Shown in pieces: positions 2,418 to 46,152 of a DNA stretch of 64,000 bases. This DNA is from Mytilus trossulus (Eukaryota): the NCBI RefSeq assembly GCF_036588685.1, contig NC_086377.1, forward strand, positions 45,942,001 to 46,006,000, given 5' to 3'. Both the position numbers and the translations under genes were made by a program. Each line of letters starts with the position of its first letter. Positions within the stretch are counted from its first letter, which is position 1. Below the pieces are notes generated by a model. The model ran no database searches. It had not been told where the DNA came from and saw nothing but the letters and a program-made list of their open reading frames with translations.

Positions 2418-3048
2418 CTTTAATTTTTTGTGATTGGAGGAAACAAATGTCAAAAGTCACGAAAACGATATGCAGGATTCACATACTCATCAGAGCGAAC
2501 AAATTGCAATTGTTCCTCGCAACGTATGTTATCTAGCAGTTTGCATCTGCCGCTGTTTTGTGCCTTAACATGATTAGGTCTTTAAATGACACTGACTGAA
2601 ATGAGATGGGTAACCATCACACCTGCAAAAGAATGTACTTTAACAAATAATGACTTTATGTTTAAGAGTCATGTTTATGTTTTATGCATTTCTTGTCATT
2701 TAGTCAGTTGTTATGACATTATCCCCTCTTAGATACGATCACGTAATTCCTGTGTTTGCCACTCTCTCTACGATTCCCCTCAATTGCTAAAAATGGTAGC
2801 ACCGGAGCCATTCACTCCTGGCACACTTATAAAAGGCGTTCTCGACAATTTATTTGTATCTTATTCAAGATTGACCTCTACGTAAAAAGAGGAGAGGCGT
2901 TGTATTTGAAAGGATGTCATCAAATGAATTTGTTTTTACGTGAATTACCAGCAATGCCCATTATATATCCGTGGATGATACGATTATGTGTCGCGAATTC
3001 CACCGTCCTCTTAATCAATTGAAAACCTTGAAAGAGTCAAAAAAGAAA

Positions 3049-3119
3049 TGCATCGGCCGGGAATCGAACCCGGGCCGCCCGCGTGGCAGGCGAGCATTCT
3101 ACCACTGAACCACCGATGC
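3049..3119 (-). tRNA. tRNA-Gly(GCC)
   Basis: Copy of 167-237. Confidence 0.96.
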
Positions 3120-3786
3120 TTATGACTACCTCATGTTAAACTTGATCATATAAGGACACATGTTACCTGATATGTATGGTATAAATGCATGTTAATATGA
3201 TACTGAAATTGTCGGTAGAAACACGTACGGCACAAATACATTTGAAAAGAGGAAATCGGCGATAATTTAGATCTCATTTGTTCAGCTGCAGCATATCATT
3301 GAATATCAACTGGAGGTTGAAATATAATGACCAGAAAAAACGCTACTGTCGGCTTCGTGTATAATTTGAAACTTAAATATAAGCTTATACCCGCGTAGTT
3401 AAAAAAAAAAATCGTGATCTTAAAGGGATAACTAACCTCAAGTCTTTCAAAGAAGACCTAATCGCAAAACGAAAAGTTCTGTAATTTGACATGATTTCTG
3501 TTGCGGTTTCCATGACAGACAACTAGAACTCGGTAAAGTCGACATATGGTACATGCTAATTTTCATACTCCATGTAATTATAAGCTAAATGCATAACTTC
3601 GCCCTTTACCAATTGTACGTTTCTGCATCTAATATTTACCGACTGGTCTAGTTTTGTGAGCTTTGAATACTATCCTGTCATTCTGTCAGCTAAATCACAG
3701 TTATCATATGTTGACACAATCATAAATGTATTAGGCTGGGTAAGGACTCTTTTATATATAGCTTAAATTAAGCAAGTTATACTAAG

Positions 3787-3858
3787 TCCGATGTGGTCTA
3801 GTGGTTAGGATTTCTGGTTTTCACCCAGACGGCCCGGGTTCGATTCCCGGCATCGGAG
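3787..3858 (+). tRNA. tRNA-Glu(TTC)
   Basis: Copy of 905-976. Confidence 0.96.
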
Positions 3859-4489
3859 CTTTAATTTTTTGTGATTGGAGGAAACAAATGTCAAAAGTCA
3901 CGAAAACGATATGCAGGATTCACATACTCATCAGAGCGAACAAATTGCAATTGTTCCTCGCAACGTATGTTATCTAGCAGTTTGCATCTGCCGCTGTTTT
4001 GTGCCTTAACATGATTAGGTCTTTAAATGACACTGACTGAAATGAGATGGGTAACCATCACACCTGCAAAAGAATGTACTTTAACAAATAATGACTTTAT
4101 GTTTAAGAGTCATGTTTATGTTTTATGCATTTCTTGTCATTTAGTCAGTTGTTATGACATTATCCCCTCTTAGATACGATCACGTAATTCCTGTGTTTGC
4201 CACTCTCTCTACGATTCCCCTCAATTGCTAAAAATGGTAGCACCGGAGCCATTCACTCCTGGCACACTTATAAAAGGCGTTCTCGACAATTTATTTGTAT
4301 CTTATTCAAGATTGACCTCTACGTAAAAAGAGGAGAGGCGTTGTATTTGAAAGGATGTCATCAAATGAATTTGTTTTTACGTGAATTACCAGCAATGCCC
4401 ATTATATATCCGTGGATGATACGATTATGTGTCGCGAATTCCACCGTCCTCTTAATCAATTGAAAACCTTGAAAGAGTCAAAAAAGAAA

Positions 4490-36085: not shown

Positions 36086-36683
36086 TTATGACTACCTCAT
36101 GTTAAACTTGATCATATAAGGACACATGTTACCTGATATGTATGGTATAAATGCATGTTAATATGATACTGAAATTGTCGGTAGAAACACGTACGGCACA
36201 AATACATTTGAAAAGAGGAAATCGGCGATAATTTAGATCTCATTTGTTCAGCTGCAGCATATCATTGAATATCAACTGGCGGTTGAAATATAATGACCAG
36301 AAAAAACGCTACTGTCGGCTTCGTGTATAATTTAAAACTTAAATATAAGCTTATACCTGCGTAGTTAAAAAAAAATCGTGATCTTAAAGGGATAACTAAC
36401 CTCAAGTCTTTCAAAGAAGACCTAATCGCAAAACGAAAAGTTCTGTAATTTGACATGATTTCTGTTGTGGTTTCCATGACAGACAACTTGAACTCGGTAA
36501 AGTCGACATATGGTACATGCTAATTTTCATACTCCATGTAATTATAAGCTAAATGCATAACTTCGCCCTTTACCAATTGTACGTTTCTGCATCTAATATT
36601 TACCGACTGGTCTAGTTTTGTAAGCTTTGAATACTCTCCTGTGACAGTCATGCTGTCAGCTAAATCACAGTTATCATATCACA

Positions 36684-38207
36684 TGTAGTAGGTGGTTTTC
36701 TATGCGTTAATAACACCAACAATGAGATCTAAGGTTCTGATGATTTATTTACCAGTATATAAAACAAGTCTGAAATAGCAATACAACATATATAAATAAC
36801 AAGCTATTTCTTATAACATAATATATATACTTTTACGAATATCACAGGTTATATAGTACAGGAATACAATTAATAATACATTTAACTGTTAATTACTAAT
36901 TAGCAAGTAAAATGTATTGCAAGTAGAAAATATTCATTGTTTACTTTTACTGAAATTGACATCGGGTGTCACGTGTACTTTTACAAATGTTTGACCTTTA
37001 ACTATACACTAAATCGGAATGTCATACGTAATTTATGTGTATCTGTGTATTTGTATTCAATACTGGTTTACCTTACAAACGGTATGTAATAAATGTTACA
37101 ACTACATTTATTAATAATGACTTCATTAAAATATATAACACGTATAATAATTAACTATATAATATCATACAACAATCATAAAGTCGCAAATATAATAATC
37201 ATAAAGACTTATGATGTCAATATTATCGATTCATTAAAAAGCTCCAAACTAACGGGAGATAACTCATGTTTACAATACAATATAAACAAAGCTTAACTAT
37301 AAATAAATATACTCTTACCACTTGTGGAGTGAGTTGTGCTGATACGGTTAACGGCACATCATATAAACATCACACAATCATGTGTTTTACATAATTACGT
37401 TACATGGATTCCTGAAACCAAAATACGAACATAAATACTCGGAATCGAATTATAAAAATATACAATGTACTAAATATTCTTTACTCATTCATATTTGTAC
37501 TTGATAAAAACTATTTACTACAAAACTATTACTTTATATAAATGGAAACACTTTTCCGTCTTTTACTTAATAAGCCGTCATTTATAAAATATAGACTATT
37601 CATGACAATAATCAAATAGTAATGTACGCAAATTAACAATACAATTCTACCGTGGCAAATAAACCGTAGATTATAAAATCATATACTTCTAGCTTAATAA
37701 AATACTATCATGTACATCTTGTGTACTTGTGTTACATACATGCGATATGAGGAGAACGTTACAAAACAAAATAGAAACTTTACTAGAATATCATTTACGT
37801 GAAAAATATGAATAATGTTAATAAAGAAGTAACTTACAGTATTCTATAATAATGTTGTCCAAAATATATAAGGTTTACAGGTAAACTATGTGGTCAAGAT
37901 AAACAGACATAAATTCAATGAACTGTCATGGCTATCGTCCGTGGAAATGTACAGGTACAAAACAAAGGAAATTAAACTTGACCGCGAAATATAAACAGCC
38001 AATCAGATACAATGATTTAAGTAAATCCCTAATGAATATTCATAAAATAACGTGAATATTACTATACATAAAAATAAGGTTTGCAAGTAATAATTTAAAC
38101 TGAATATACAATATTCAAAATATGTAATTAAGCTTTTTAATAAATATAGTAATTAAATAGATGATTTTTACAATATATAAAATTATCATAAAAATCACTC
38201 TGCTACA
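36684..38207 (-). repeat. 3' LTR (1524 bp)
   Basis: Matches 44553-46076 except two substitutions I could see (37139/45008 and 37912/45781); adjacent to the PPT. Confidence 0.95.
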
Positions 38208-38218
38208 TTCTCCCCGCT
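38208..38218 (-). promoter_or_regulatory. Polypurine tract
   Basis: Minus strand AGCGGGGAGAA immediately before the TG of the 3' LTR. Confidence 0.85.
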
Positions 38219-38290
38219 GTAGGAAAATGACTTCCACGTCATTCCCGTCTGTTTCCCCCTTCACTGAAGGTTGACGTCCTCGGCAAGCCA

Positions 38291-41200
38291 TTAACCAGTT
38301 CGCATGATGTCGAGGATGGTTCTTGACAACTCCATCTCTAAGCCTTTAAATCTTCCTTTTCTTGCTTCAGACTCCAACCAGTGAATCCTCATTAACCAAT
38401 CGGGCTGTTGGATAGTAGTAGCCTGCTTAGATAAAACATAGTCATCCAGGTATTTCGGTGGTTTCCTTTCTCTCTGAGGTCTAGTTGCTACTGGTGGGTC
38501 TCGTGGTGGTGTCGGTAGTATACGTCTCCTTCGTGGTTGTTGTTCCGGAGCTATGGTGGGTTCCTCTGCCTCTACTAGTGACAAGTCTGTTGGCGCACTC
38601 TCATCTTGATCAATAGAAGTGTTTTCTTCAATAGTCTGAGCAGTCGCTTCTTCAGGTTCCTCATCACTCACAGGGTTTGGTTCTGCAGCTGTAATAATGT
38701 CCACAGGAAGAGCGTCCCCTCCTAAACCAGTTCCCTGCTGATCATTACTCTCAGCTCCATCATGGCCGTCACCAGTGAAACCAAGAGTTCCTTCTTCTTG
38801 TAGGTCCACAACTGGTACATCACTGTTAGTGTTGTCCTGTGTATCCTTATCAAGTATCCAATATCCATACTCCTGCTCCGACTCCTCATCTGATACTTCA
38901 TCAGTGGTCCTGTTCTCACTGTTCCCTTCAGATTTCGTCGGTTCCTCGGGCTGCTTATTTCTTCTTTGTTGCCTGGGCGCAGGACGTTTCTTTTCTTTAT
39001 CAATATCTTTGGGCAGATCTCCAATAGGCAAGAACAGATTTCTATGCAAAGTCCTCTTTCTTCCTTCCTTGTTTTCTTTCTGAACCACGTACACTGGTAT
39101 TCCACAATTAGGCTGACTAATTATACGATACGGGTCATCTTCCCACCTATCTGCTAACTTGTGCTTTCCATCAAAGGCTAGTGTCTTAACTAAGACTCTA
39201 TCTCCAGGCTTCAGCACAGCTCCTTTTACTTTCTGATCGTAGTGTGTCTTTTGTCGTTTCTGGGCAGCAAAGATGTTTCTTGTTGCTGTGTCATATGCCT
39301 TACGAAGTCTTTCTTGCATTTCTTCTGCATACTTAGTTGTAGTAATAGGTTCAGCTTCATCTCCGATTCCAAAAGCGATGTCGATAGGTAGCTTTGGTTG
39401 TCTTCCGAACATCAGGAAGTATGGAGAGAATCCCGTTGATGTTTGACGAGTGCAATTGTAAGCATGGACAAGACCAGCAACATGCGACTTCCAATCTTTC
39501 TTCTGGACGTTCTCTAATGTTCCAAGCATACCAAGTAATGTTCTGTTGAATCTTTCAGTGACGCCATTTCCCATTGGATGATACGGTGTTGTTCTTGACT
39601 TAGTCATACCAGTGATGTTGCATAGTTCCTTGATGATTTTGGATCCGAAGTTGGCACCTTGATCGGAGTGAATTCTTTCTGGCAAACCATAGTGGACGAC
39701 AAAGTTGTTAAAGAATGCGTCTGCAGTTGTTTTCGCTGTCTGGTTTCTTGTTGGTATTGCCAATGCATATCGAGTGAAGTGGTCTGTTATTACAAGTATG
39801 TTCTCAAATCCACCTGTAGATCTTTCAAGTGAGAGATAGTCCATACATACTAACTCCAGTGGTTGTGTTGTCTCGATACTAATGAGTGGTGCTCTATGAC
39901 TTGCAGGTTGCTTTCGTCGAATACATCTGTCGCAATTCGATATCCAGTTGTCAACATCTCTATTCATTCCAAACCAAACAAAACGATCTCTAACCAATGA
40001 TACTGTTTTGTCTCTGCCTTGATGTCCCATCTCATCATGTAATGATGTAAGTACTTTGGAAATGCAGACTTCAGGTAGTACAAGTTGTTTATGTTGTTCC
40101 CCATTGTCGTGGATAATACGGTAGAGTACACCATCAACCATTTTCAATTTGTCGTAGTTGTTTATAAACCAAGTGTTCCATGGTGAACGTTCTAACTGTT
40201 CTTTTCGTGGCTTTCGATGTTCATCAACCCAATATATCCAATCTTTAAGGTAAGTATCTTGCTTCTGTTCCATCTTGATGTTGACTAGATGTTGTGATGG
40301 TAAGTATGGATCATCAGTGGCTTTAGATGCTGTCATCGATAACGTCTGAACATATGGTTGTGCATGCTGTAACTGACAAATGGCTTTCACAGAATCTGTA
40401 CTAATGTTGGAGGTGTTGGTACGACCAAGTAGTTCTGGAAGTCTGGAAAGTGCATCTGCATCAGCGTTGTTAGCACCAGGTCGATAGACGATGTTAAAGT
40501 TGTAAGATGACAAACTAGCTATCCAACGATGACCAGTGGCGTCTAGCTTTGCTGTTGTTAAAACGTAGGTAAGTGGGTTGTTGTCTGTAACCACGGTAAA
40601 TGTGTTGCCATAAAGGTAATCATGAAATTTCTCTGTTACTGACCATTTCAGAGCAAGGAATTCTAACTTGTGGACTGGATAGTTCCTCTCAGTCTTGCTA
40701 AGTCCTCTGCTGGCATAAGCTATGGCTCTTTTCTTTCCTTCTTGTGATTGGTACAGTATTGCTCCAAGACCAAGCATAGATGCGTCTGTATGTAATTCAA
40801 AAGGTTCCTTATAACGTGGATAACCAAGAACAGGTGGCATTGCAAGTTGACTTTTGAGCTTTTGGAAGGCATCTTCTTGTGGCTTGTCCCAAACCCATGA
40901 TGTAACTGTTGGCTTCTTAAGTTTTCGTTTACTGGACTTCTTTGGTGCAGGCATCAAGTCTGTGAGCGGTCTTGCTATCTTAGAGAAGTCTTTGACAAAC
41001 TTGCGGTAATAACCGACGAAACCAAGGAAGCGACGTACTTCTTCTGGCGTTGTGGGTCGAGGCCAGTTGATGACTTTCTCTAATTTATCTGGATCGGGTG
41101 AAATACCATCTTTAGAGACTATGTGACCGATGTACTTAACTTTGTCTTTGAAGAATGCACATTTCTTGGGCGAAAGTTTCAAGTTGTGTTCTCTTAGTCG

Positions 41201-43036
41201 TTGTAATACCATCTGTAACCTTTCAAGATGTTCTTCATACGTCTCTGAAAAGATGATCAAGTCGTCAAGGTATATAAAGCATATATCTAGGTGTAGATCT
41301 CCAAGTATCTGTTCCATGAGACGTTGGTAAGTTGCTGGACTGTTTACGAGGCCAAACGGAAGTCTGTTAAATTCATAGAAACCAAGAGGGCCGACTGTAA
41401 ATGCTGTTCTAGCCTTGTGTGTCTCTTCTACCTCTACTTGGTGATAACCACTCTTCATGTCCATGACGGTATAGTAGTTGTTTCCTCCTAATGCGTCAAG
41501 GATTTCCTCGCTTCTAGGAAGAGCATATGAGTCTTTAATTGTCAGCTGGTTCAGTTGTCTATAGTCTACACACATTCTGAGCTTGTTGTCTTTCTTTCTA
41601 ACCAATACAACATTCGATGACCAAGGCGAATGTGAACGACGAATGATCCCAGCAGTAAGAAGTTGTTGAAGGTGTGTTCTAACTTCGTCGAATAAGGCAG
41701 GTGGAATACGCCGGTGTCGTTGTTTGAATGGTGTTTCATCTATCAGTTCTATCTTATGCTGTACGGCGGTGATGTGGCCTATATCAGTATCTGATGTGCT
41801 GAATACGTCTCTGAATTGATGTAGTAATTCTCTGGCTTTATGTAGTTGATCATCACTAAGTGTGTCTGGAAATGTAGATTCATTCCATGCATCTTGTTCA
41901 TAGGTATCTGGTACATCAATGTCGGTGACTGAAACAGGTTGAAGTTCGCAAAGGATGGCATTTGGCGAAACTGTCACTGTTCTGGTAGTTACATTGCTGA
42001 TATGTACTGGTATGATGCTGTTGTTTCTATACTCATATGATACTAGTGATGGAGCTATATCTAAGTCAGATGGTATTGCTGCTCTATCAGTTGACTGTAG
42101 GAGTCCACAAACTGGATGGTATGGTAGTTCATGGTCCATGTATCCCTGTAGAATGACATCTCTGTTAGGCGGTATACGGATTGTCTTTCCTTCAGCACTC
42201 TTGATGATGGCAAGTCTGTTGCATCTCTTTTGTAATTCTTTATCTCTTAAAAGCAAACATCTAAATGTGATATACCAAGGTGTATGTAGATCTGCTGTTT
42301 GTAGAAAGCGTGATCCATATCGTTGCTTTACATCTGTCATAGCTGCTGTCAAGACGTTGGTTCCAAGTAGAAGTGGTACTAGCTGGTTGTAAGAGCTGTC
42401 TGGAACGACTAACAGTAAGCATTGTTGAGGATCTGCTGATGTAGATGTACCTGGTAATTGTAGATCTGCTGAGATGTAACCAAGGTATGGCATGTTCTGG
42501 CCATCTGCACATTCGATATGAAGTATCTGGTTGAGTGTCTGGATAGGACTGTCAGCAAGGTACTGTCGATGGAATGACTGGCTAACTGTACTAACTGTAG
42601 AACCAGTATCTAGTAGTGCTGCTGCTTGAAGTCCATTGATGACTACTGTGACTTCATTAGGGCTACCAAGTAATCCTTCTGTATCACCTGATGACTGTCG
42701 TTGTTGATACATCTTAGCTTCAGTGTTCATCTGCTGAAAGTTACAAGCTTTTCTAGTGTGATCCAGTCTAACACAGCAGGCAAAGGCATAGTGGCCTGGT
42801 TGTCCACATCTGTAGCATATAACAGGTTCTCTTGATGGTTGAGATACATAAGTCGGAGTAGGAGCAGGTTGGTATTCAGCTTCTATCTGGTCCCAGTATG
42901 GACGTTGTCTGTTGCGTCTTCGGTGACGACGACGTTTTCTGCGTGGTGGATAGTACTGTGGATCAAAGGTGTCGTTGGTATTGTAGTGTTGGTCATACAT
43001 GGCGTTGTAACATGGCTCATTCGGTTGTTCATACAT
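38291..43036 (-). CDS. pol: Gypsy polyprotein: CCHC zinc knuckle, aspartic protease, reverse transcriptase, RNase H, integrase (no evident capsid domain)
   Basis: 1581-aa open frame. Motifs: CYRCGQPGHYAFAC (CX2CX4HX4C), LLDTGS, LPFGL..YLDD, LHTDAS..LEF..TDN..DALSR, H-x4-H...CDRC, and DDE (MDY, SDQG, VTERFN). ACCATG start with an in-frame TAG just upstream. Confidence 0.96.
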   Translation of the reverse strand: MYEQPNEPCYNAMYDQHYNTNDTFDPQYYPPRRKRRRHRRRNRQRPYWDQIEAEYQPAPTPTYVSQPSREPVICYRCGQPGHYAFACCVRLDHTRKACNFQQMNTEAKMYQQRQSSGDTEGLLGSPNEVTVVINGLQAAALLDTGSTVSTVSQSFHRQYLADSPIQTLNQILHIECADGQNMPYLGYISADLQLPGTSTSADPQQCLLLVVPDSSYNQLVPLLLGTNVLTAAMTDVKQRYGSRFLQTADLHTPWYITFRCLLLRDKELQKRCNRLAIIKSAEGKTIRIPPNRDVILQGYMDHELPYHPVCGLLQSTDRAAIPSDLDIAPSLVSYEYRNNSIIPVHISNVTTRTVTVSPNAILCELQPVSVTDIDVPDTYEQDAWNESTFPDTLSDDQLHKARELLHQFRDVFSTSDTDIGHITAVQHKIELIDETPFKQRHRRIPPALFDEVRTHLQQLLTAGIIRRSHSPWSSNVVLVRKKDNKLRMCVDYRQLNQLTIKDSYALPRSEEILDALGGNNYYTVMDMKSGYHQVEVEETHKARTAFTVGPLGFYEFNRLPFGLVNSPATYQRLMEQILGDLHLDICFIYLDDLIIFSETYEEHLERLQMVLQRLREHNLKLSPKKCAFFKDKVKYIGHIVSKDGISPDPDKLEKVINWPRPTTPEEVRRFLGFVGYYRKFVKDFSKIARPLTDLMPAPKKSSKRKLKKPTVTSWVWDKPQEDAFQKLKSQLAMPPVLGYPRYKEPFELHTDASMLGLGAILYQSQEGKKRAIAYASRGLSKTERNYPVHKLEFLALKWSVTEKFHDYLYGNTFTVVTDNNPLTYVLTTAKLDATGHRWIASLSSYNFNIVYRPGANNADADALSRLPELLGRTNTSNISTDSVKAICQLQHAQPYVQTLSMTASKATDDPYLPSQHLVNIKMEQKQDTYLKDWIYWVDEHRKPRKEQLERSPWNTWFINNYDKLKMVDGVLYRIIHDNGEQHKQLVLPEVCISKVLTSLHDEMGHQGRDKTVSLVRDRFVWFGMNRDVDNWISNCDRCIRRKQPASHRAPLISIETTQPLELVCMDYLSLERSTGGFENILVITDHFTRYALAIPTRNQTAKTTADAFFNNFVVHYGLPERIHSDQGANFGSKIIKELCNITGMTKSRTTPYHPMGNGVTERFNRTLLGMLGTLENVQKKDWKSHVAGLVHAYNCTRQTSTGFSPYFLMFGRQPKLPIDIAFGIGDEAEPITTTKYAEEMQERLRKAYDTATRNIFAAQKRQKTHYDQKVKGAVLKPGDRVLVKTLAFDGKHKLADRWEDDPYRIISQPNCGIPVYVVQKENKEGRKRTLHRNLFLPIGDLPKDIDKEKKRPAPRQQRRNKQPEEPTKSEGNSENRTTDEVSDEESEQEYGYWILDKDTQDNTNSDVPVVDLQEEGTLGFTGDGHDGAESNDQQGTGLGGDALPVDIITAAEPNPVSDEEPEEATAQTIEENTSIDQDESAPTDLSLVEAEEPTIAPEQQPRRRRILPTPPRDPPVATRPQRERKPPKYLDDYVLSKQATTIQQPDWLMRIHWLESEARKGRFKGLEMELSRTILDIMRTG

Positions 43037-44215
43037 GGTAAACGGTGTAAACTAGTGTACCTATAAACATTCAATTCATTCACCCTAATTCAAGTTCAAT
43101 AATAATGCAAAATTCTAATAAGTGTCAACACCACCACACTAAATGCTAATGATCAAATGCAAATTTTTAATCAATATTAAAAAAAAAAACAATGTCTATC
43201 AACAATCTAAAAATCTAGGTACTATCTAACTCAGTGAATGTCTAATATGTAAATAATATGATAATAAATTTAATTCATATCAACTTAAGTACCAAGTCAC
43301 TATACAAAGTATATTTATAAAACGATATATGAAAACTATGTATCTAATATCAACTAGCAATGCTACACATAAAACATAATGTGTGTTATAATTGCTAAGT
43401 TCAACTGAGCATTGACCTATACCATGTGGGTTATAGTTCAATGTAAGTATAATACACTACAACTGTATACCGAAAAATAAATTTAAAATATAAAAGTGTA
43501 TGCTGTATACTATGTAGCTATGCTACTGTAATCTACAAAGTATGTTTATCACTATCAGTAATACATGTACACCATAAATGAATGCCTAAATAATATAAGT
43601 GTACATGTCCTCTGACAGACTAAGTCCAAATCCAAGTAAGCCTCGGAAAAAAAAAAATTTAATGTGTATAAATGTTTAAGTATGAAAAGGTCAAAATGAA
43701 GGACGTCAAAAAAAAAATTTAAAGTCAAAAAAGTGGATGCAAAATTTCAAAATTAAATTCGAAATGTGAAAATGTTTCAAGTGTATGCTAAGTTTCAATG
43801 TATCAAAGTGGTATACAGTATATAATGTAAATAAATAAATCCTACCTTAAACTAGAAAACTATTCCAATAATTACACTGTTCCACAAAAGTATAATTAAA
43901 TCACAATATTTCACAATGCAGAATAATACAAGTTCAGTTTTCCAAAGTGAAAAACAAAAAGTCAAGTTACTATAAGTAACATCCGGTACTATATTGTCAT
44001 CCGGTAAACTGTAAACAAACGCACGTGGACGATGATCACATGGGTCGGAATGTTAGTAAACATAAGCACGTGGTAAAGTTCATCACATGGTACCATAACG
44101 GAAGTAAACAAACACACATGGTCACTGCATACATGGACTAGAGACATCTAATGGTGGTCACTGACATCACATCTGGATCTCCACAAAAACTGGTATGTGC
44201 CATCAACCCAACGAA

Positions 44216-44227
44216 ACGTGGGCGCCA
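44216..44227 (-). promoter_or_regulatory. Primer binding site (internal, 12 nt), tRNA-Lys-like
   Basis: Minus strand TGGCGCCCACGT, 2 nt after the CA end of the partial LTR. TGGCGCCC is the start of canonical Lys PBSs. Confidence 0.85.
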
Positions 44228-44229
44228 TT

Positions 44230-44531
44230 TGTAGTAGGTGGTTTTCTATGCGTTAATAACACCAACAATGAGATCTAAGGTTCTGATGATTTATTTACCA
44301 GTATATAAAACAAGTCTGAAATAGCAATACAACATATATAAATAACAAGCTATTTCTTATAACATAATATATATACTTTTACGAATATCACAGGTTATAT
44401 AGTACAGGAATACAATTAATAATACATTTAACTGTTAATTACTAATTAGCAAGTAAAATGTATTGCAAGTAGAAAATATTCATTGTTTACTTTTACTGAA
44501 ATTGACATCGGGTGTCACGTGTACTTTTACA
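44230..44531 (-). repeat. Partial LTR copy (last 302 bp of the LTR in element orientation)
   Basis: Matches 36684-36985 and 44553-44854; contains minus-strand AATAAA at 44290-44295. Confidence 0.95.
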
Positions 44532-44532
44532 C

Positions 44533-44550
44533 GTCCCTACGTGGGCGCCA
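44533..44550 (-). other. Second PBS: 18-nt complement of a tRNA 3' end
   Basis: Plus strand GTCCCTACGTGGGCGCCA ends in CCA and fits tRNA positions 59-76. It resembles the Lys3 PBS TGGCGCCCGAACAGGGAC at both ends. Confidence 0.8.
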
Positions 44551-44552
44551 TT

Positions 44553-46076
44553 TGTAGTAGGTGGTTTTCTATGCGTTAATAACACCAACAATGAGATCTA
44601 AGGTTCTGATGATTTATTTACCAGTATATAAAACAAGTCTGAAATAGCAATACAACATATATAAATAACAAGCTATTTCTTATAACATAATATATATACT
44701 TTTACGAATATCACAGGTTATATAGTACAGGAATACAATTAATAATACATTTAACTGTTAATTACTAATTAGCAAGTAAAATGTATTGCAAGTAGAAAAT
44801 ATTCATTGTTTACTTTTACTGAAATTGACATCGGGTGTCACGTGTACTTTTACAAATGTTTGACCTTTAACTATACACTAAATCGGAATGTCATACGTAA
44901 TTTATGTGTATCTGTGTATTTGTATTCAATACTGGTTTACCTTACAAACGGTATGTAATAAATGTTACAACTACATTTATTAATAATGACTTCATTAAAA
45001 TATATAATACGTATAATAATTAACTATATAATATCATACAACAATCATAAAGTCGCAAATATAATAATCATAAAGACTTATGATGTCAATATTATCGATT
45101 CATTAAAAAGCTCCAAACTAACGGGAGATAACTCATGTTTACAATACAATATAAACAAAGCTTAACTATAAATAAATATACTCTTACCACTTGTGGAGTG
45201 AGTTGTGCTGATACGGTTAACGGCACATCATATAAACATCACACAATCATGTGTTTTACATAATTACGTTACATGGATTCCTGAAACCAAAATACGAACA
45301 TAAATACTCGGAATCGAATTATAAAAATATACAATGTACTAAATATTCTTTACTCATTCATATTTGTACTTGATAAAAACTATTTACTACAAAACTATTA
45401 CTTTATATAAATGGAAACACTTTTCCGTCTTTTACTTAATAAGCCGTCATTTATAAAATATAGACTATTCATGACAATAATCAAATAGTAATGTACGCAA
45501 ATTAACAATACAATTCTACCGTGGCAAATAAACCGTAGATTATAAAATCATATACTTCTAGCTTAATAAAATACTATCATGTACATCTTGTGTACTTGTG
45601 TTACATACATGCGATATGAGGAGAACGTTACAAAACAAAATAGAAACTTTACTAGAATATCATTTACGTGAAAAATATGAATAATGTTAATAAAGAAGTA
45701 ACTTACAGTATTCTATAATAATGTTGTCCAAAATATATAAGGTTTACAGGTAAACTATGTGGTCAAGATAAACAGACATACATTCAATGAACTGTCATGG
45801 CTATCGTCCGTGGAAATGTACAGGTACAAAACAAAGGAAATTAAACTTGACCGCGAAATATAAACAGCCAATCAGATACAATGATTTAAGTAAATCCCTA
45901 ATGAATATTCATAAAATAACGTGAATATTACTATACATAAAAATAAGGTTTGCAAGTAATAATTTAAACTGAATATACAATATTCAAAATATGTAATTAA
46001 GCTTTTTAATAAATATAGTAATTAAATAGATGATTTTTACAATATATAAAATTATCATAAAAATCACTCTGCTACA
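44553..46076 (-). repeat. 5' LTR (1524 bp)
   Basis: Direct repeat of 36684-38207; followed on the minus strand by AA + PBS. Confidence 0.95.
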
Positions 46077-46152
46077 TTGACACAATCATAAATGTATTAG
46101 GCTGGGTAAGGACTCTTTTATATATAGCTTAAATTAAGCTAGTTCTACTAAG

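Follow-up and report, generated by a model that had tools for sequence, protein, structure and literature searches.

A probable failed plus-strand transfer behind an 18-nt tRNA-Lys copy and a duplicated LTR segment in a Gypsy retrotransposon

A single retrotransposon copy inside a tRNA gene array raises the question of how its primer-binding region came to hold two tRNA complements of different length, separated by a piece of its own long terminal repeat (LTR). The window analysed here, a 64-kb stretch of DNA on contig C5 of a 1.3-Gb genome, contains a tandem array of tRNA-Glu(TTC) and tRNA-Gly(GCC) genes (80 tRNA genes), whose sole interruption is the element at 36684-46076 on the minus strand. 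This insertion is young and has the structure of Ty3/Gypsy LTR retrotransposons: two direct LTRs with TG...CA ends, a primer-binding site (PBS), a polypurine tract, and a pol region in the order protease, reverse transcriptase (RT), RNase H, and integrase. Its features are as follows.

44553..46076, minus strand: 5' LTR of 1524 bp, TG...CA, with two differences from the 3' LTR
45810..45830, minus strand: likely main transcription start, at about LTR position 257, from a step in RNA depth and clipped read ends (related-sample reads of family copies)
45281..45706, minus strand: LTR intron 1 (LTR 371-796, GT-AG), spliced in RNA
44639..45187, minus strand: LTR intron 2 (LTR 890-1438, GT-AG), spliced in RNA
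44551..44552, minus strand: AA spacer between LTR and PBS, present in all family copies
44533..44550, minus strand: copy of the last 18 nt of the host tRNA-Lys(UUU) (nt 59-76, with CCA), sequence TGGCGCCCACGTAGGGAC
44532..44532, minus strand: extra G, where tRNA and LTR would both give T; completes a 7-bp fold-back stem with 44515-44521
44230..44531, minus strand: duplicated LTR positions 1223-1524 (302 bp), identical to both LTRs, starting within LTR intron 2
44216..44229, minus strand: AA and the normal 12-nt family PBS (12-mer TGGCGCCCACGT at 44227-44216), followed by TTCGTT and the leader
43052..44215, minus strand: leader, roughly 1.2 kb and AT-rich, in which no gag open reading frame reaches 90 aa
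38291..43051, minus strand: single open frame of 1586 aa from stop to stop, with zinc knuckle, protease, RT, RNase H, and integrase, without a capsid domain
38208..38222, minus strand: polypurine tract with the terminal sequence GGGGAGAA, adjoining the 3' LTR
36684..38207, minus strand: 3' LTR of 1524 bp
36680..36683, no strand: 4-bp filler (CACA on the plus strand) that replaces one target base, without target-site duplication

Re-reading of the sequence reproduced to the base the layout given in the original prediction, LTR-AA-18-mer-G-302-bp LTR-AA-12-mer-TTCGTT. Self-comparison of the window yields a repeat of 316 bp with 100% identity at the duplication, and the ectopic resumption at LTR position 1223 lies within the same element (no differences over 302 bp). 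The partial LTR is identical to the copy's own LTRs, whereas other family copies differ by about 6-12% across the 302 bp; it therefore derives from the same molecule or lineage. Both the 18-nt tRNA complement and the LTR duplication probably go back to a failed plus-strand transfer that was fixed in one round of reverse transcription. The duplication is an accident, not a device, and the single copy in the window has no evident function.

The outer 18-mer had been predicted to record the 3' end of the real primer tRNA, including CCA, and a search of the host tRNA set bears this out. The 15-mer GTCCCTACGTGGGCG has 475 matches in the genome (reversed control: 0); in the array loci that were read, it forms the 3' end of tRNA-Lys(TTT) genes, in which CCA is not encoded. 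The 18-mer with CCA has seven genome matches (control: 0). The sequence that follows the LTR is thus the exact complement of host tRNA-Lys(UUU) plus CCA and extends beyond the family PBS; the junction thereby identifies tRNA-Lys(UUU) as the actual primer. In the array loci, the T-loop motif GTTCGA directly precedes the 15-mer, so that the 18-mer corresponds to nt 59-76 of the mature tRNA and the predicted stop at exactly 18 nt equals the distance to A58. Copies end at or near A58 both in the window (18 nt) and in the parallels described below (16-20 nt), with m1A58 presumed by analogy. The predicted pairing with the last 18 nt of the tRNA is -42.1 kcal/mol at the outer site and -27.3 kcal/mol at the inner site. 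Arrays of Lys and Met tRNA genes with hundreds of copies are located on contig C10 (G000:C10:51.27-51.49 Mb). The array in the window is likewise large and homogenised, with Glu/Gly units of 1441, 1425, 1457, 1470, and 1104 bp, and the array units at 26-28 kb give no tRNA-Glu call.

A DNA search for the family returned 41 matches, 30 of which were fetched and compared. An LTR-PBS junction together with internal sequence is present in nine copies, including the one in the window. The expectation that the others carry only the 12-nt PBS holds for seven of eight (C3, C7, C8, C10, C11, C12, and C13), and the 35 RNA reads that exit at the PBS (18 and 17 in two runs) all show the 12-nt site. The exception is C1, which has lost 1.8 kb, so that its 18-mer (one change) leads straight into pol; the junction has a 2-nt AC overlap (GGGAC-ATTG, compared with ATGAAC-A[C/T]TG in the reference). 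Because only these two copies carry the 18-mer, it is not the PBS of the family and was written in twice independently. Mis-transferred plus-strand strong-stop DNA is the likely source, since the 18-mer is an exact tRNA-Lys complement and seven of the eight other copies have only 12 nt.

The survey of parallels covered every one of the 35 genome matches of the 12-mer (reversed control: three matches), together with all 12 hits of an LTR-end/PBS pattern that allowed mismatches. Nine of the 35 (L092, L096-L098, L100, L103, and L105-L107), which have 12-13 nt and no recognisable LTR or pol, were excluded from the counts. Copies of 16-20 nt of the tRNA occur at L091, L095, L108/109, L111, L112, L124, L126, and L127/128; a copy of more than 20 nt was found at none of 27 loci and four further loci. 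The individual cases, including shorter copies with unusual flanks, are listed here.

L111: 18 nt and T, joined into pol; the sister L102 has 12 nt; overlap AC or ACT
L091: 17 nt, joined into pol
L108/L109: 16 nt, joined into pol; one event, duplicated
L127/L128: LTR, 17 nt with one change, 111-bp partial LTR, decayed short PBS; tandem pair, one event
L090 (G000:C1:61518861 region): 13-nt tRNA match, then a 229-bp inverted copy of its own polypurine tract-U3, then pol; normal 4-bp duplication
L095: LTR tail, 17-nt tRNA copy, unrelated DNA
L112: LTR tail, 19-nt tRNA copy, unrelated DNA; LTR end uncertain
L124: LTR tail, 20-nt tRNA copy, unrelated DNA
L126: LTR tail, 18-nt tRNA copy, then G, unrelated DNA
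L093 and L101: LTR tail, 13-nt tRNA copy, unrelated DNA

The pair L127/L128 repeats the layout of the window copy (LTR, long PBS, partial LTR, short PBS), and its sister L104 has 12 nt. L090 appears to be a more complex strand-transfer accident. At their junctions, tRNA copies in other tRNA-Lys families abut pol, LTR, or host DNA, and slips of the kind seen in the window recur in this genome.

The proposed course of events starts from the family PBS, which pairs with just 12 nt of the tRNA. In retroviruses, synthesis of plus-strand strong-stop DNA continues into the attached tRNA as far as m1A58, which amounts to 18 nt. If the same applies here, a copy to m1A58 would leave a 6-nt 3' tail that lacks a complement in the minus strand. 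The minus strand would have passed the PBS into the LTR, with unspliced RNA or the strong-stop DNA as template, and come to a halt at LTR position 1223. Its end may then have folded back on the hairpin TGTA-AAAG-TACA and gained three templated bases, two of which would pair with the terminal AC of the tRNA copy; extension of both strands from this clamp would produce LTR-PBS18-G-partial LTR-PBS12. Self-priming of the plus strand followed by a switch yields the same letters, and the sequence alone gives no order for the minus-strand stop, the fold-back, and the clamp.

The extra G fits a templated fold-back that leaves a 2-nt AC overlap. It completes a 7-bp stem with the LTR sequence just downstream; the predicted junction hairpin ACGTGTA/TACACGT is real, and only 7 of 4453 combinations of position and base along the LTR would give a stem of at least 7 bp. 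Of the three ideas initially offered for this base, snap-back synthesis is therefore the best. The AC overlap recurs at two further junctions, those of C1 and of L111 relative to its sister L102 (AC or ACT), and the junction of L127/128 has no clear AC overlap. In vitro, HIV-1 and other retroviral RTs are able to initiate from overlaps of 2 nt, which favours the clamp, but they need a second strand annealed next to it (PMC3035444); by analogy, this need for an adjacent strand would count against the clamp. Misincorporation of G opposite m1A58, another of the three ideas, is disfavoured, on in vitro data only, because tRNA-Lys has a G 3' of A58 and m1A followed by G shows a low C signal in the in vitro contexts reported (PMC4787781).

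The third idea, a copied cap, depends on where transcription starts. RNA reads came from two runs dated 2026 under another organism label; they are mostly 90-99% alike and pool all copies of the family. Both runs show element-sense transcription, with depths of 24.4 and 18.8 at 45794-45847 versus 5.2 and 3.9 at 45848-45901, and reads clipped at 45809 (24 and 14; median clip 11 nt); the main transcription start is likely near 45820, at about LTR position 257. Splicing removes the introns at LTR 371-796 and 890-1438 from the RNA; the two are absent from both C1 LTRs and the C14 LTR, and the intron-2 joint is found also in DNA contigs of two other samples. Spliced RNA was evidently reverse-transcribed into the short-LTR copies C1 and C14. 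A start near LTR position 1437, suggested by LTR "deletions" common to C1 and C14, was rejected, as these are GT-AG introns that are spliced in RNA. At 45188, 32 reads of one run (X22) exit LTR exon 2 at the splice donor into dissimilar sequence (agreement 0.68), possibly from a chimeric transcript driven by the LTR or from a copy that has diverged. Many RNA molecules end at 44206, 10 nt downstream of the 12-nt PBS (18/71 and 12/41 in the two runs); possible causes are an RT stop at the bound primer, cleavage, or a second start.

These data bear on the suggestion that the 302 bp are a complete R-U5 with a start at 44854, in which case the minus strand would have reached the 5' end of the RNA and copied the cap as G before the strong-stop DNA was joined end-on. 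Copying of the cap by RT is known from work on Ty1 and retroviruses, G is the expected letter, and L126 likewise has a G after 18 nt. Neither the start nor the cap is supported, however: with a start near 45820, position 44854 (LTR 1223) lies inside the spliced intron 2 at near-zero RNA depth (element-sense depth over 44660-44821 of 0, 0, and 0 in one run and 0, 0.6, and 4.7 in the other), which for these related-sample reads rules out transcription from LTR 1223, and the G also completes the rare hairpin. Because the 302 bp cover no more than the distal portion of a long transcribed stretch of the LTR, a cap origin is very unlikely. What remains of the original prediction is an aberrant strand transfer, which is the best explanation and has genomic parallels in C1, L111, and L127/128; its cap-G/R-U5 option falls away. 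Hardly plausible is also a recombination with a family whose normal PBS has 18 nt, or a nested insertion. Such families exist (L094/L115/L116 and L113/L114, with 17-18 nt as the norm), but they are distant (pol about 31% identical), their LTR ends differ from those of the window family, and their PBS continues with CCCTCTC. Since their flanks differ, they do not refute the strand-transfer reading, and the 18-mer is not the normal PBS of a sister subfamily. The 18-mer is flanked on both sides by LTR sequence of its own family, and searches with the 12-mer, the pattern, and the family revealed neither a close relative with an 18-nt PBS as the norm nor a nested target-site duplication; judged by these flanks, this explanation appears largely refuted.

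An assembly artefact has to be considered because the site lies in a tandem array, and no read spanning the junction is present in the other-sample runs compared. Two DNA contig sets and two RNA runs were compared over 44498-46110, leaving out six RNA rows with a word share of 0.09-0.13; among the best-supported loose ends, joints, and contigs of these four runs, all from other samples, the PBS18-G-LTR junction was not seen. Both DNA runs show the empty site, and the RNA rows listed show the 12-nt PBS. With a best word share of 0.63, none of the runs derives from the assembled individual, and because they represent other samples, the reads neither confirm nor refute the junction. An artefact is nevertheless extremely improbable, as the seven letters after the shared 12-mer are absent from the normal element and the junction therefore cannot result from a collapse or mis-joining of copies; moreover, the 5' LTR has private differences, and parallels occur at other loci. 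Later chromosomal repair would give letters identical to those of a reverse-transcription slip. A normal copy would have been inserted first, and a dead-end strong-stop cDNA of the same lineage (LTR plus 18-nt tRNA copy) would later have repaired a break in the 5' LTR, using homology at one edge and end-joining, with a templated G, at the other. LTR tails with tRNA copies of 13-20 nt beside unrelated DNA at six loci (L093, L095, L101, L112, L124, and L126) suggest that such fragments are captured, and host end-joining typically leaves short fold-back insertions. Such a repair is unlikely, however, because it needs a near-identical donor, whereas the closest other family copy among the matches compared is about 96% identical; it also leaves the missing target-site duplication unexplained, and the jumps of C1 and L111 into pol better suit reverse transcription.

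The integration site is itself irregular. Compared with empty array units, the filled site has lost one base, gained four, and shows no target-site duplication; a variant array unit that hides a duplication is ruled out by the identical sequence of all 26 other units that match the site motif. A 4-bp duplication is present in all six normal-PBS sisters with both ends and in C1. Its absence from the window copy makes a normal integration less probable but does not affect membership in Ty3/Gypsy. It also counts against an origin of the junction in one round of reverse transcription, for which normal ends are expected. In the strand-transfer reading, the product would have entered the tRNA array without the 4-bp duplication, likely by half-site integration or host end-joining. 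Six events with long tRNA copies have both ends, of which three are normal (C1, L090, and L091) and three abnormal (the window copy; L111, whose 3' LTR is 21 bp short; and L108/109, with a 102-bp duplication and no terminal CA). The association between long copies and odd ends (3/6 versus 0/6) is not significant (Fisher p = 0.12 against 0/5, before C10 was added). Host deletions, insertions, and duplications at the LTR junction have been described for aberrant HIV integrations (PMC5041404). The half-site integrations among them resemble the window copy in having an irregular LTR junction instead of a normal target-site duplication; those described were due to drugs or integrase mutants (PMC5041404).

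The class of error is already known from HIV and Ty3; the window layout is a variant, and the missing target-site duplication is newly noted here. Among HIV-1 proviruses, 44 cases have been reported in which a delayed second-strand jump left a copy of tRNA-Lys3 (Hardy et al. 2025, PMC12657518). They share with the window copy the presence of tRNA-Lys on the plus strand at the junction, a wrong resumption on the minus strand, and integration of the product. The PBS of HIV-1, however, already has 18 nt, so that inserts require read-through past m1A58; those described have 7-54 extra nt, and all jumps lead downstream into deletions (PMC12657518). In the window copy, by contrast, a stop at A58 overshoots the 12-nt PBS, and the jump leads upstream, so that the LTR is duplicated and the open reading frame kept. 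Dead-end plus-strand strong-stop DNA and recycling of the polypurine tract have been described for Ty1 and Ty3 (Lauermann and Boeke, via PMC5371799); the strong-stop DNA of Ty3 carries 12 nt of the tRNA and is a dead end that is not inherited (PMC5371799, PMC7472051). These elements and the window family have in common a short PBS, a strong-stop DNA that copies more tRNA than the PBS holds, and the retention of the short PBS in most copies, and the window copy differs from the Ty3 product described (PMC5371799) in that its tail has 18 nt and was fixed in an animal germ line. A retrotransposon with the layout LTR-18-nt tRNA copy-partial LTR-short PBS was not found in the literature searched, in which older virology is thinly covered. 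In MLV vectors, Mikkelsen and Pedersen reportedly observed second-strand transfer that was mediated by R-U5 and used an extended minus strand, and Pulsinelli and Temin are said to have described PBS-anchored deletions. As in the proposed origin of the window copy, the minus strand reportedly extends past the PBS into U5-R, with junctions at the 3' end of the tRNA copy; these were retroviral vector experiments, however, and transfer by homology is said to give no LTR duplication there.

The window copy documents the in vivo extent of tRNA copying for an animal Gypsy element in which the copy exceeds the PBS in length. Trimming and a Ty3-like second priming are two candidate routes for disposing of the extra six bases. 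As a tentative generalization, animal Gypsy elements with a 12-nt PBS may routinely make untransferable strong-stop DNA with an 18-nt tRNA tail, and its rescue via a 2-nt AC overlap, often with faulty integration, may account for a considerable fraction of the germ-line insertions (two of the nine PBS-bearing copies here, with cases in at least four other tRNA-Lys families). If so, genome assemblies would provide a fossil assay of germ-line m1A58 and of second-strand transfer in metazoan Gypsy elements, a step so far worked out mainly in yeast. Independently of this generalization, the failures preserved in assemblies can be tallied from genome to genome, with no experiment needed. Annotators should note that the longest tRNA match beside an LTR can be the product of an error and not the PBS of the family. 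The normal layout would be regained if the 316-bp repeats recombined with each other.

The coding capacity of the family is also unusual. In the window copy and three sisters, the open reading frame begins with a brief Arg-rich segment plus a zinc knuckle, both in frame with pol, and a capsid gag frame was detected neither in the window copy (38291-44215) nor in the three sisters checked (among L068, L070, L072, and L099). The relatives L102 and L110 encode a PNMA-type Gag of 428-440 aa; they share with the window family the order protease, RT, RNase H, and integrase (pol 52-56% identical), a 12-nt tRNA-Lys PBS, and a 4-bp target-site duplication. The window family differs from them in the loss of the capsid part of gag and in its spliced LTR, and the window copy in its two PBSs. 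A lineage that lacks capsid but is enzyme-complete and recently transposed would need Gag in trans. Other rearrangements were seen in further copies: C7 carries a 1.24-kb segment (element 2641-3884) three times in tandem (L076, 2878-6442), and the LTRs of C8 (L081/L080) have shrunk to about 104 bp at both ends, within a 4-bp duplication. The LTR of L101 has shrunk to about 45 bp, in both cases via short shared T/A-rich words.
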